Virus genome (UHGV): UHGV-1600942
Direction: 5' to 3' (one strand)
Source of the DNA: a virus
DNA: 18,186 bases
Shown: positions 14,128-16,055 of the stretch, in pieces
How positions within the stretch are numbered: position 1 is the first letter of the stretch
Layout of the letters: each line of letters starts with the position of its first letter
Notes under the pieces: generated by a model
Database searches by the model: none
The model's input: only the letters and a program-made list of their open reading frames with translations
Told to the model about the DNA's origin: nothing
Translations under genes and position numbers: made by a program

Positions 14128-14139
14128 TCAATGTTTATG

Positions 14140-14163
14140 AACCTGCTTCGGCAGGTTTTTTTA
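14140..14163 (+). terminator. Rho-independent terminator downstream of cI
   Basis: AACCTGC-ttcg-GCAGGTT (7-bp stem, UUCG tetraloop) followed by TTTTTTT. Confidence 0.8.
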
Positions 14164-14166
14164 TAC

Positions 14167-14194
14167 TTGACAATGTACCTTTGAGATACATAAT
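14167..14194 (+). promoter_or_regulatory. pL-like early-left promoter with embedded operator-like half-sites
   Basis: TTGACA (14167-14172), 16-nt spacer, CATAAT (14189-14194). Spacer contains TGTAC-N7-ATACA (14174-14190), resembling the TGTAC-N7-GTACA operators. Confidence 0.55.
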
Positions 14195-14284
14195 GTACCC
14201 AAGCGAAACAACGAACAGGCAGGACGCCCACGAAGTAGCCGCCTGGGGCATATGAAGTCCAGGATGATTCGTTAGCAACAAAAA

Positions 14285-14317
14285 AGCGCCCTACAGGACG
14301 CTTAGCTCTTTAACAAT
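14285..14317 (+). promoter_or_regulatory. rrn-type antitermination element (boxB-like hairpin + boxA)
   Basis: GCTCTTTAACAAT at 14305-14317 is identical to the 13-nt core of the E. coli rrn boxA (TGCTCTTTAACAATTTATCA) as I recall it. It is preceded by an A-run and a hairpin (AGCGCC-ctaca-GGaCGCT), the same boxB-then-boxA order as rrn leaders. Confidence 0.5.
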
Positions 14318-14361: not shown

Positions 14362-14568
14362 ATGCACAAAACAGAACCCAAAATCGTCGCGCCTGGCTAC
14401 ACAGATGAGGAAATTTATGAGTGGATGACAAAGAAGCTGGCAGCTATAAACCAGCTTCGTGAAGTGCTGTCTTATCGACAGGAAACAATAGACTCCTTAA
14501 AAAAACTGGATCAGGAAATCACGGTTTTATCACAGGATGTTACTTTAGATATTGTGCAGACAAATTAG
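14362..14568 (+). CDS. Hypothetical 68-aa protein
   Basis: ATG at 14362 preceded by GAGGAG SD with 7-nt spacer. AT-rich; predicted helical (LAAINQLREVLSYRQETIDSLKKLDQEI). No Arg-rich motif, so not N-like. 3' end overlaps the convergent ORF144 by 29 nt. Confidence 0.45.
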   Translation: MHKTEPKIVAPGYTDEEIYEWMTKKLAAINQLREVLSYRQETIDSLKKLDQEITVLSQDVTLDIVQTN

Positions 14569-14974
14569 GATCCCATTCATTTTCGTCAAAATCATCAAAG
14601 TGATGAATTTGTGATCTCCAGTCTCGATAATCTAAAAATTTCTGGGCGGTTACGCTTATTTTATCAAGTGTGAGTTCATCCTGAATTGAAAGAAGAAGTT
14701 CATCAAATTTCATCTCATTAATCTGTTTTGGCATCCAGTGATGCTTCATCAGAATAAGGTGAACCAGAGCCTTTTTCCCATTCAACTGATTATAGGGAGT
14801 GCCGAATTTCTTCCGGTGCTCATGTAAGACAAGGTCCAAAAGAGTAAGTAATGTTGCCCTTGATTCAACTTTGCTTATTTCGACTGATGACACTACCCCA
14901 CTGATTTCAATGCCCCGATACTTTCCAACATTTTCACAGTGGGATTTGTACAGCGTATAGATATTACCGGACAT
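14540..14974 (-). CDS. Hypothetical 144-aa protein (AT-rich cargo gene beside the immunity region)
   Basis: Minus-strand ORF antisense to the early-left operon. ATG 14972-14974 with AAGGAAAAG SD 6 nt upstream. Low GC; acidic C-terminal tail. I recognise no family. Confidence 0.65.
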   Translation of the reverse strand: MSGNIYTLYKSHCENVGKYRGIEISGVVSSVEISKVESRATLLTLLDLVLHEHRKKFGTPYNQLNGKKALVHLILMKHHWMPKQINEMKFDELLLSIQDELTLDKISVTAQKFLDYRDWRSQIHHFDDFDENEWDPNLSAQYLK

Positions 14975-14990
14975 TTCTTTTCCTTTTGCG

Positions 14991-15038
14991 TTGTTGGGGA
15001 TAACCAGATTAACCGAATCCTTGTTGTTGGGGAATAAC
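14991..15038. repeat. Two direct repeats TTGTTGGGGA(A)TAAC upstream of ORF144
   Basis: Copies at 14991-15004 and 15024-15038 (33-bp period), 17-65 bp upstream of the ORF144 start codon. Confidence 0.4.
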
Positions 15039-15044
15039 TAGGTC

Positions 15045-15490
15045 CACCTCGCCTGATGTGGCTAAAAGCAGGCACATAACAGCTAAGTATTTTCAACCAG
15101 AGAGAATCCTTAGCGTTGTGGTGAATGCGGCTCAGCGCACGCGGGTTAAGGTTGAGGCTGACAGTCGACCTTCTGTGGATACCCACCCGCCTGGTGTGCA
15201 ACCTTCGCCAGGCACCGGGAGGCACCCGGCACCACAACTTTATGCTGTGTGTAGTCCTGGCGGTACCAGTTTGTACCCTTGCTTCCGGCTGGTACCGTCC
15301 TTTTTACAAAACAGAGAAGAGCATCACCGGACGACGGGCTCATAACCCAATCCATCCGGGCGGCTGCCACCGCAGGTGTTCTTCTCTGTTTTGTGGAGAA
15401 ACTAACCGCCCCTACGGGGGCATTTATGGAAATGTAATTGACTCAATAACCGCCGGACGGTGAGGGCTTCCTTTTACCCGAATTCAGCGC
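15045..15490. other. GC-rich, hairpin-dense non-coding segment (candidate structured RNA or protein-binding locus)
   Basis: About 450 bp with no credible ORF. Perfect 15-bp inverted repeat ACAAAACAGAGAAGA (15306-15320) / TCTTCTCTGTTTTGT (15380-15394) around 59 bp; 9-bp inverted repeat CGGTACCAG (15261-15269) / CTGGTACCG (15289-15297); further GC stems (CCGGG/CCCGG, GCCCC/GGGGC). Confidence 0.3.
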
Positions 15491-15518
15491 GGTGCAGCGC
15501 ATATACGTGGAGAACAAA

Positions 15519-16055
15519 ATGTCATTTATTAAAACTTTTTCCGGGAAGCATTTTTATTATGACAGGATAAATAAAGACGACATCGTTATTAACGATATCG
15601 CGGTTTCCCTTTCAAATATCTGTCGCTTTGCAGGACATCTTTCACACTTCTACAGTGTCGCCCAACATGCGGTGCTTTGCAGCCAGCTGGTGCCGCAGGA
15701 ATTTGCTTTTGAAGCTTTAATGCATGATGCAACAGAAGCATATTGCCAGGACATCCCCGCACAACTGAAACGACTTCTTCCTGACTATAAACGGATGGAA
15801 GAAAAAATAGACGCCGTAATCCGTGAGAAATACGGGTTACCTCCTGTTATGAGCACGCCAGTGAAATATGCCGATCTCATTATGCTGGCAACCGAACGCC
15901 GCGATCTCGGGCTTGATGATGGCTCTTTCTGGCCTGTGCTGGAAGGTATCCCGGCAACAGAGATGTTCAACGTGATTCCACTGGCTCCAGGCCATGCCTA
16001 CGGGATGTTTATGGAACGCTTTAACGAATTATCGGAGTTACGCAAATGCGCATGA
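15519..16055 (+). CDS. HD-domain phosphohydrolase (YfdR-like 5'-deoxynucleotidase family)
   Basis: Track ORF 15492..16055; likely start MSFIKTFSGK at ATG 15519 with GGAGA SD. HD motif (ALMHDATEA) and upstream His (FAGHLSHF); 178 aa. Confidence 0.85.
   Translation: MSFIKTFSGKHFYYDRINKDDIVINDIAVSLSNICRFAGHLSHFYSVAQHAVLCSQLVPQEFAFEALMHDATEAYCQDIPAQLKRLLPDYKRMEEKIDAVIREKYGLPPVMSTPVKYADLIMLATERRDLGLDDGSFWPVLEGIPATEMFNVIPLAPGHAYGMFMERFNELSELRKCA

Follow-up and report, generated by a model that had tools for sequence, protein, structure and literature searches.

DicF, the small RNA (sRNA) of the Qin prophage of Escherichia coli K-12, is made by transcription termination and RNase E cleavage or, alternatively, by RNase III acting on the full-length transcript, which yields a form of 72 nt, 19 more than the 53 nt of the terminated RNA (PMC9438474, PMC5069750). 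It has been thought to be limited to defective prophages, and a published BLAST search of phage genomes was negative (PMC5069750). STnc100, another prophage sRNA, is known from Salmonella; in enterohaemorrhagic E. coli it lies downstream of stx2 and overlaps the Hfq-bound EcOnc27, and it has recently been grouped with PasD (PMC12370729, PMC12711010, bioRxiv 10.64898/2026.05.13.724894). The family is prophage-borne and Hfq-associated, Hfq binding being reported for canonical copies only (PMC12711010; bioRxiv 10.64898/2026.05.13.724894). Here we compare with these systems positions 15045-15490 of the virus genome UHGV-1600942, a segment of an 18,186-nt stretch of DNA that was analysed whole and that we call the window. 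The window shares 99.9% identity with prophages of many E. coli chromosomes, and its close kin are the Shigella phages SfII, SfIV and SfV. We find that 15045-15490 is probably a non-coding RNA locus in the early-left (pL) operon of a temperate phage of the SfII/SfV/e14 type. Annotations give the region as a hypothetical or frameshifted protein or leave it blank; in fact, it holds a set of conserved RNAs.

Layout and coding status of the segment

The RNA elements of the segment and the spacer that follows them are, from 5' to 3' (with the evidence in brackets where it is specific to the element):

15115-15238, + strand: module A, candidate five-way junction of the STnc100 superfamily (Rfam, minimum free energy (MFE) fold, 49-sequence alignment)
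15115-15123 / 15230-15238, + strand: closing helix of A
15120-15126, + strand: GGUGAAU motif of A
15127-15131 / 15137-15142, + strand: Pa hairpin of A
15148-15155 / 15165-15172, 15175-15178 / 15183-15186 and 15189-15196 / 15206-15213, + strand: internal hairpins of A
15215-15219 / 15225-15229, + strand: terminal hairpin of A, CCGGG-AGGCA-CCCGG
15239-15258, + strand: single-stranded seed of the DicF-like sRNA (UUUAUGCUGUGUGUAGUCCU), about 20 nt (alignment of 86 upstream-of-B modules; alignment with Qin DicF)
15259-15305, + strand: predicted intrinsic terminator of the sRNA, a 13-bp stem (15259-15271 / 15287-15299), then C and U5 (15300-15305)
15306-15394, + strand: module B, three-way junction containing the 15-bp repeat (covariation, fold z, identity with tRNA-fMet)
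15306-15325 / 15375-15394, + strand: helix P1 of B, 20 contiguous bp including wobbles, holding the perfect 15-bp repeat
15327-15331 / 15355-15359, + strand: helix P2 of B, 5 bp
15336-15348, + strand: tRNA-fMet-like anticodon arm of B (GGG 15336-15338, loop CUCAUAA 15339-15345, CCC 15346-15348)
15360-15363 / 15370-15373, + strand: helix P3 of B
15393-15422, + strand: conserved GUGGAGAAAC (15393-15402), then a short hairpin (15408-15412 / 15417-15421)
15409-15518, + strand: spacer that in other phages separates yfdQ from yfdR (alignment with Stx2a_WGPS2; synteny)

A sequence-only reading of this DNA had described the segment as GC-rich, compositionally distinct and too structured for a plain promoter region, and each of these points is borne out. 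The repeats lie where it had placed them: a perfect 15-bp inverted repeat (15306-15320 / 15380-15394, spacing 59 nt) that can be extended to 25-nt arms of 84% complementarity, a perfect 9-bp inverted repeat (15261-15269 / 15289-15297, spacing 19 nt), and further stems, including another perfect 9-bp pair (15115-15123 / 15230-15238) around 106 nt. GC content is 0.51-0.57 over 14950-15549 vs 0.36-0.42 over 14500-15099. Folded as + strand RNA, the 446 nt reach -184.5 kcal/mol vs a shuffle mean of -147.2 (z = -5.8), and none of 100 dinucleotide shuffles did as well; the - strand gave z = -2.7. By part, z is -7.3 for B, -3.1 for the sRNA and terminator and -2.7 for A, while the last 97 nt (15395-15491) fold in an ordinary way (z = +0.5).

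The segment is not coding. The earlier claim that it has no credible open reading frame (ORF) needs rewording, in that a 112-codon ATG ORF (15125-15463) does overlap it and is annotated, as hypothetical protein SfII_35 in phage SfII and as a frameshifted pseudogene in an identical E. coli prophage (RefSeq); this ORF is, however, not a gene. Its product has no Pfam, NCBIfam or PHROG match, and the frame is intact in 10 of 35 distinct homologous sequences and broken in 25 (in ST64B by a stop at codon 7). Variable columns fall on codon positions 1/2/3 as 42/52/52, with no codon periodicity. A decayed protein-coding gene had been named as one of the outcomes that would overturn the earlier reading, and these comparisons argue against it. 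At gathering thresholds, Rfam has no match anywhere in the window, and ARAGORN finds no tRNA there.

By BLAST against phage genomes, the sub-blocks of the segment have separate distributions, which makes it a mosaic of independent modules. Set beside several hundred related phage and prophage loci, it resolves into modules on the + strand, the one that carries the early-left operon. Positions 15044-15419 are found as a unit in the SfII/SfIV/SfV group, and ST64B has about 15099-15406, with 77% identity. The phages Stx2, mEp460 and cdtI have 15258-15419 alone, Klebsiella phages share about 50 nt (15312-15362), and phage P1 shares 32 nt (15114-15145). In a multiple alignment of five phages, the whole interval from cI to the first gene shows conserved blocks with unrelated sequence between them.

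Module B is conserved as a + strand RNA

The strongest fold of the segment belongs to an undescribed structured RNA motif, B, which is conserved as a + strand RNA. In a structure alignment of 66 distinct leader-type copies, 95.8% of cells are paired, both sides have changed in 10 pairs (110 cells), and 500 column shuffles all fall short of the covariation score; when the partners are slid by 1-3 columns, pairing falls to 39-54%. Among the 29 pairs of P1, P2 and P3, the 10 with changes on both sides stand next to 9 in which a single side changes or the sole departures are unpaired cells, and 8 that are invariant. P3 ranges from 14 to 40 nt across copies. G-U pairs make up 6% of cells, and pairing on the reverse strand is 90.9% vs 95.8% on the + strand, a wobble asymmetry from which we place the B RNA on the + strand. 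Paired arms of both B and A are conserved across relatives with compensatory changes, and the 15-bp arms, whose conservation as DNA or as RNA had been raised as a question, compensate as RNA.

No Rfam family matches B, at gathering or at relaxed thresholds, and the covariance model of B has a single match in the window. Scanning public collections for the core GACGGGCTCATWAYCCAATCCA recovered at least 120 viral contigs and 24 species-representative genomes, in Escherichia, Shigella, Citrobacter, Enterobacter, Kosakonia, Leclercia, Mixta, Phytobacter, Pseudescherichia, Pseudocitrobacter, Raoultella, Klebsiella, Buttiauxella, Erwinia, Pantoea and one record labelled Chryseobacterium. With a presence in 2492 of 5426 complete E. 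coli genomes (~46%), in up to 5 copies each, B is among the commonest unannotated structured RNA motifs in E. coli. We found no description in the literature of B, of the seed variants or of transcripts of this leader.

Hairpins processed by RNase III are familiar from phage early transcripts, as in the lambda N-leader and sib and the R sites of T7. B resembles them in its near-perfect 20-bp helix, set in an early leader between an upstream RNA and the ribosome-binding site of the first gene, and P1 has the length of an RNase III substrate (about two turns, at least 20 bp). Many B variants also carry a conserved internal mismatch in mid-helix (alignment pair 16-110), a feature to be compared with such sites. 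Unlike B, those sites have no invariant apical three-way junction, and B also comes, in tRNA arrays, in a form with a 6-bp helix.

A DicF-like sRNA tail and the Qin dicF locus

Directly upstream of B lies the tail of a putative sRNA, made of a seed and a terminator. The terminator, whose 13-bp stem takes in the 9-bp repeat, is in our judgement real, since relatives keep the stem by means of other complementary sequences (GUCGGCGUC.../...GACGCCGAC in ST64B, and GGCGGCAUC.../...GAUGCCGC). A T run of at least 5 is found within 45 nt upstream in 136 of 152 B copies. The seed is exchanged among relatives: the 86 distinct upstream-of-B modules hold at least five unrelated variants on the same terminator arm.

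This arm links the segment to Qin. The window 5' arm, UGGCGGUACCAGUUU, matches UUGGCGGUAUCAGUUU of DicF, the usual reading in relatives being UUGGCGG. The K-12 Qin locus runs from ydfC through a structured element, DicF and an STnc100-like element to dicB. The structured element upstream of dicF is closed by GUUGUGG/CUGCAAC and recurs at ~90% identity in viral contigs, where it stands directly before a different seed, the window-type terminator arm and B; the window has the same terminator arm and B as those viral loci, with another A cassette and seed. From this adjacency and the matching arm, the window locus reads as an allelic form of Qin ydfC-dicF-dicB in which the A cassette, the seed and the post-terminator element have been exchanged. 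The layouts are homologous. Both loci lie downstream of a cI-like repressor gene in the early-left operon, both run from a structured element through a short seed, a Rho-independent terminator and a second structured element to the first downstream gene, and their terminator 5' arms are nearly identical (UUGGCGGUAYCAGUUU). The putative window sRNA has the location of DicF, in the early-left operon after the repressor gene, and like it would end at a Rho-independent terminator. In contrast, the window seed is unrelated to that of DicF, the terminator is followed by B in the window and by the STnc100-like element in Qin, and the downstream gene is yfdR in the window and dicB in Qin.

The correspondence extends to the presumed processing site. 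B's P1 begins at the first base after the U-tract, which is the position of the RNase III-dependent DicF end in Qin. There, adding 19 nt to the end of 53-nt DicF leads inside the closing helix (14 bp) of the STnc100-like element between dicF and dicB. DicF is marked by its seed and by complementarity to ftsZ, xylR and pykA. In a crude RNAduplex comparison with the ftsZ leader, neither the window RNA nor DicF did better than shuffles, so that the known pair was itself not recovered.

DicF would accordingly be one allele of a modular locus whose seed and flanking structured domains are swapped as cassettes in active temperate phages (SfII, SfIV, SfV, ST64B and Stx phages). Such swapping implies a large untapped set of phage sRNAs with differing targets.

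As a separate observation, the dicF-dicB spacer of K-12 Qin (locus L153 of our collection, 2455-2590; L numbers below are handles of the same kind) is an STnc100-like element (GUGAUGUGGUGAAUGCGGCUGAGCGCACGCGG ... CACCUGGAGGCACCAGGCACUGCAUCAC); it is unannotated in RefSeq, and the same arrangement is found in many viral contigs.

Module A belongs with the STnc100 superfamily

At relaxed thresholds, Rfam gave one significant match, STnc100 (RF02076), over 15085-15307 and the full model length (43.1 bits, E = 1.1e-7); an Rfam scan, which had been proposed as a check, was thus empty at the gathering threshold and informative below it. The ST64B and P1 relatives score 35.1 and 33.4 bits against the same model. 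All parts of the STnc100 architecture are present in the window MFE fold, namely the closing helix, GGUGAAU, Pa, the internal hairpins and the terminal CCGGG-AGGCA-CCCGG. In an alignment of A with 48 other superfamily members (49 sequences), the closing helix and Pa covary, with double changes in 9 of 18 predicted pairs; compensated variants include GCAUGGUG/CACCAUGC, GUUGUGGUG/CACCACAAC, GAUGCGGUG/CACCGCAUC and CUGCUGUG/CACAGCAG. Scanning viral contigs for the invariant 3' motif of A, CACCNGGAGGCACCNGGCAC, returned at least 120 contig stretches, and all loci collected hold 92 distinct elements. By these sequence comparisons, A is a genuine, somewhat divergent member of the STnc100 superfamily.

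What A shares with STnc100, EcOnc27 and PasD is the closing helix, GGUGAAU, the Pa hairpin and the invariant CACCGGGAGGCACCCGGCACC. It differs from them in its surroundings. Canonical copies are late-region elements, found downstream of stx2 in the stretch from Q to the lysis genes, and have promoter-like sequence, whereas A is early-left and no such sequence was detected there (PMC12370729). The sequence just upstream of canonical copies resembles TTGAC-N17-TAAAT, and these copies have their own terminator and nothing particular downstream; module A is instead joined to the DicF-like tail.

The end of the segment and the loss of yfdP-yfdQ

Past B, GUGGAGAAAC and the short hairpin are kept in nearly all type-1 (leader-type) loci, and the hairpin sequences covary. 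At the place of GUGGAGAAAC, phage P1 and L296 have the beginning of a full A module, whose closing helix overlaps with its 5' strand the 3' arm of B's P1. With a full A at the same place in these two, the GUGGAGAAAC-hairpin looks like a truncated A and may be what is left of an A start (GUGGUGAAU and the Pa hairpin).

In relatives, a yfdP-like gene and yfdQ (DUF2303) lie between B and yfdR; both are lost in the window and in SfII. The B leader is joined to the spacer inside two similar hairpins, which indicates that yfdP-yfdQ was deleted here. The proposal that the segment is the remnant of a deleted gene is therefore right only for 15409-15491, the yfdQ-yfdR spacer left by this loss. The spacer carries the yfdR Shine-Dalgarno sequence, GGAGAA, at 15508-15513.

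A loop of the form (U/G)UGCAG or UGGCAG recurs on differing stems, in P3 of B and in the post-B hairpin, at many loci (among them L132, L105, L034 and L006). The hairpin after yfdQ (GCCCCUGCGGGGGC) bears the same loop, and it is inside two such hairpins that the yfdP-yfdQ deletion of the window was joined. The recurrent loop may be a shared protein-binding or recombination motif.

Early-left setting and working model

The genes around the segment set its place in the phage genome:

13453-14127, + strand: cI-like repressor gene, LexA family, ymfK type (RefSeq annotation of the 99.9% identical prophage; synteny in SfII, ST64B, Stx2a_WGPS2 and phiNP)
14139-14158, + strand: cI terminator, just 5' of the pL-like promoter
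14167-14194, + strand: pL-like sigma-70 promoter, TTGACA-16-CATAAT, 11 of 12 consensus matches (consensus scan; a pattern match, with function suggested by position)
14540-14974, - strand: cargo gene of the ECs1072 family (phrog_5286), between pL and the RNA modules
15519-16055, + strand: yfdR, HD-domain 5'-deoxynucleotidase, the first gene 3' of the RNA modules in this phage

In the window orientation, the late and early-right genes lie on the - strand, and the position and orientation of the cI-like repressor gene give the direction of the early-left operon. A short + strand ORF lies between the pL-like promoter and the reverse-oriented cargo gene, and the RNA segment is followed on the + strand by yfdR (ATG at 15519), yfdS, yfdT, xis and int. 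With cI and the promoter upstream and yfdR-yfdS-yfdT-xis-int downstream, all on the + strand, the segment falls in the leader of the early-left operon. The order of cI, pL-like promoter, leader and first early-left gene is kept in the window, SfII, ST64B, Stx2a_WGPS2 and phiNP. The K-12 CPS-53 prophage (yfdP-yfdT) is without modules A and B.

We favour a model in which termination, or processing around the terminator, turns the pL transcript into an Hfq-type sRNA and RNase III cuts B in read-through transcripts, and we hold it to be likely. Transcription from pL would run to the terminator at 15259-15305, and the terminated RNA would be trimmed by RNase E, as DicF is, to the sRNA, A either staying as its 5' domain or being removed. 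The exchangeable seed would set the targets by base-pairing with host or phage mRNAs. By analogy with 72-nt DicF, RNase III would cut read-through transcripts in the 20-bp P1 of B and so separate the sRNA from the yfdR-xis-int mRNA; the same cut may also free the apex of B as an RNA of about tRNA size, to be compared with the tRNA-array form, which tRNA-processing enzymes would free.

Several findings weigh against this model. The 43.1 bits of module A stay below the STnc100 gathering score of 47, so that formal family membership is not reached. The DicF model (RF00039) gives 15.7 bits at 15246-15300 (E = 2.5), far from its gathering score of 48, and on the same piece of the relative L126 it gives 28.2 bits. 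A consensus scan found no promoter-like site on the + strand over 14756-15700, hence none directly 5' of A, and a pL transcript has to pass the reverse-oriented cargo gene before it reaches A. Finally, a plain RNase III site does not need the invariant 22-nt apical sequence, which leaves the most conserved part of B unexplained, and B also exists at the ends of tRNA arrays with a 6-bp P1, too short for RNase III.

The apex of B resembles an initiator anticodon arm

B shares fourteen contiguous bases, CGGGCUCAUAACCC, with the anticodon arm of E. coli tRNA-fMet (metZ), covering its three G-C pairs and the loop CUCAUAA. B thereby has what marks an initiator anticodon loop: 7 nt, U33, a closing stem with three G-C pairs, and CAU. 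When a metagenome scan left the seven loop positions free, 14 of the 120 matches listed were genuine B copies, all of them CUCAUAA or CUCAUUC; the remaining listed matches were chance, in unrelated and mostly coding contexts. With a covariance model, distant copies came to light in one viral contig and in phage P1, there in the ban operon under C1 control (loops GUCAUAU and UUCAUAU). Constant across genuine copies are UCAU within a 7-nt loop (8 nt in L296) and the GGG/CCC closure, and what varies is loop positions 32 and 38 and all helices.

A second form, type-2 B, occurs in Klebsiella and Raoultella phages. It is 67-71 nt long, with a 6-bp P1 (GGCCUG/CAGGCC) followed by R-CCA, and stands last in tRNA arrays (Asn/Phe/Thr/Arg) located between Q and the lysis genes, with the spacing usual between tRNAs:

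L004 3009-3079 and about 13 other loci (L021, L023, L045, L049, L054, L058, L067, L084, L106, L145, L246, L263): type-2 B

With relaxed or mitochondrial settings, ARAGORN called nothing credible on B, only weak and mostly reverse-strand hits with inconsistent anticodons, and the Rfam tRNA model matched true neighbouring tRNAs and neither form of B. In phage P1, a third helix of the same kind bears a canonical T-arm (GGGUUCGAAUCCC) in place of the anticodon arm.

Mimics of tRNA anticodon arms are known in mRNA leaders, as in the thrS operator, and tRNA-like RNAs occur in phage tRNA clusters, as species 1 and 2 of T4. B resembles the former in being a hairpin with a specific anticodon loop and stem top upstream of a ribosome-binding site, and type-2 B, in other phages, resembles the latter in being tRNA-sized, with a CCA end, and last in a tRNA array. 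Unlike either, B has no nearby cognate protein gene, mimics the initiator tRNA, sits on a three-way junction and is not recognised by tRNA finders. Two other identities were considered and rejected. The CUGAUGA of type-2 B recalls a hammerhead ribozyme; the string is part of the P2 stem, is missing from type-1, and has no GAAA core after stem II. An integron attC, or an attP core derived from a tRNA gene, misfits the GTTRRRY core, and int/attP lies ~2 kb away.

Two loci also carry tRNA parts. In the ban operon of phage P1 (L003, AF234173, 1650-3130), a Qin-type structured element and a dicF-like tail are followed by two tRNAs and then by three pairs, each of a long helix with a tRNA part and an A-type element; plp and upl, ORFs annotated on the - strand across these + strand RNA structures, may be spurious. 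In L126, an IMG/VR contig, the A slot between GUUGUGG and CCACAAC holds a tRNA-like D arm (GTAGCTCAATTGGTTAGAGC), a T arm (CGGGTTCGAGTCCCGG) and a long insert; ARAGORN called no tRNA on this cassette. Leaders of this kind seem to be built from helices displaying tRNA parts.

Alternative explanations

The conserved apex suggests that B could itself be a functional small RNA imitating the initiator-tRNA anticodon arm, freed by RNase III (long P1, in leaders) or by tRNA-processing enzymes (short P1, CCA). Its counterpart would be a reader of that arm, namely a VapC-type toxin specific for tRNA-fMet, MetRS or the 30S P site with IF3, towards which B would serve as decoy, competitor or sensor. Such a role is compatible with the sRNA-processing model, and we consider it unlikely. 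The 14-base identity CGGGCUCAUAACCC includes the three initiator-typical G-C pairs, UCAU and GGG/CCC are invariant even in the distant P1 copies while positions 32 and 38 and the helices vary, type-2 B takes the end slot of tRNA arrays at the usual spacing with an R-CCA end, and the P1 relative with a canonical T-arm (GGGUUCGAAUCCC) stands on the same kind of long helix. Nevertheless, every form of B is rejected by ARAGORN and the Rfam tRNA model, the anticodon stem is kept for 3 bp only, the ST64B group has U at position 37, a base that real tRNAs avoid there, CCA is missing from the window copy, and the likeness could be descent from a decayed tRNA gene. If the loop mimicry is functional, it would link phage early transcription to the host translation-initiation machinery or to toxins against it. 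That B and its T-arm relatives form an unrecognised class of phage RNAs, each showing a single tRNA part on a helix and acting as decoys or sensors of host factors, is a doubtful extension of this idea; if true, such RNAs would let temperate phages blunt or monitor attacks on translation initiation (VapC-type toxins, the P site with IF3).

A role in cis, as a riboswitch, protein-binding operator or translational control for the first early-left gene (here yfdR), had been suggested in the form of a leader for the HD gene and strikes us as quite improbable. In leader-type loci, B and the GGAGAAAC-hairpin are always ~50-130 nt from the ribosome-binding site of the first gene, and both the five-way junction of A with its invariant unpaired bases and the three-way junction of B with its invariant loop are typical of RNAs that bind ligands or proteins; the AUGAG start context of many yfdP-type genes can, moreover, pair with the loop CUCAU. 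This pairing is missing for the yfdR, RdgC-type and WGPS2-type starts, however, and a general pairing of the CAU loop with start codons was dropped as a candidate (up to 7 bp for some yfdP-type genes, 3 bp only for yfdR and other first genes). The first gene varies as well (yfdP-like, RdgC-like, yfdR and others), as does the spacer, the Shine-Dalgarno sequence is unsequestered in predicted folds, canonical STnc100 copies come with a promoter-like sequence and a terminator of their own and have nothing particular downstream, and the modules are found among the tRNA genes of phage P1 and Klebsiella phages. The sequence-only reading had also thought of a structured antitermination or processing RNA in the pL transcript. 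Processing agrees with the position, the compensatory changes and the Qin dicF correspondence; processive antitermination of the HK022 put kind, for read-through of the early-left operon, is very unlikely. It would suit phages with no obvious N gene, a terminator within the operon leader and the position of the segment in the pL transcript, but B, a conserved hairpin, comes after the terminator to be suppressed, A-type elements are also stand-alone genes with their own terminator, B lies inside tRNA arrays, and the window has a single B with no second copy downstream of pR, unlike putL/putR. The pL-proximal leader has no put-like similarity (its conserved element is dissimilar to the HK022 early region; 15045-15490 itself was not compared with put). 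To a protein-coding or decaying gene (the 112-aa ORF, SfII_35) we give hardly any credence: the ATG ORF is annotated in some records, and the last 80 nt are a true remainder of the yfdP-yfdQ deletion, but family matches and a third-position excess of substitutions are missing, most frames are broken, the Arg/Cys-rich predicted product spans independently exchanged modules, and changes compensate as RNA pairs. The perfect 15-bp palindromic pair has the classic look of a double-stranded DNA site, for a dimeric protein or as a cruciform, and this reading is just as remote. Its arms are 59 nt apart with further conserved helices inside, they vary in sequence while pairing is kept (the 10 pairs changed on both sides), the 6% of G-U cells would be mismatches on the other strand, as the wobble asymmetry shows, and P3 varies from 14 to 40 nt.

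Neighbouring elements

In early-right regions of related phages, genes for the antisense RNAs IsrK and C4 score above Rfam thresholds (L005 21-97, - strand; L015 5052-5128 and 5153-5240, + strand); at gathering thresholds, neither is in the window.

The very start of the presumed pL transcript holds an element of ~65 nt (AACGAACAGGCAGGACGCCCACGAAGTAGCCGCCTGGGGCATATGAAGTCCAGGATGATTCG; 14205-14272, + strand) that is 80-98% conserved in phages of Salmonella, Citrobacter, Pantoea, Yersinia, Pectobacterium, Providencia and Aeromonas. A nut/put-like RNA, or a leader RNA of another kind, is a possible identity. Over 14195-14300, we found neither a resemblance to the early region of HK022 nor another copy elsewhere in the window.

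The ECs1072-family cargo gene and the genes next to it have no PADLOC match. Upstream of the cargo gene, in - strand sense, 14975-15081 contains two direct repeats TTGTTGGGG(A/G)AT (14985-15001 and 15015-15032) and a hairpin block, and the region recurs in L131, L139 and L111; it is apparently the mark of a cargo slot that separates pL from the RNA modules. Its right-hand part has BLAST matches of its own:

15044-15081, strand not assigned: left boundary block CCACCTCGCCTGATGTGGCTAAAAGCAGGCACATAAC, 38 nt, with hairpin GCCTG...CAGGC (separate BLAST matches to the block alone)

This block goes with the cargo slot, not with module A, and where A is missing (L139, L131, L053, L111) it abuts the sRNA seed directly.

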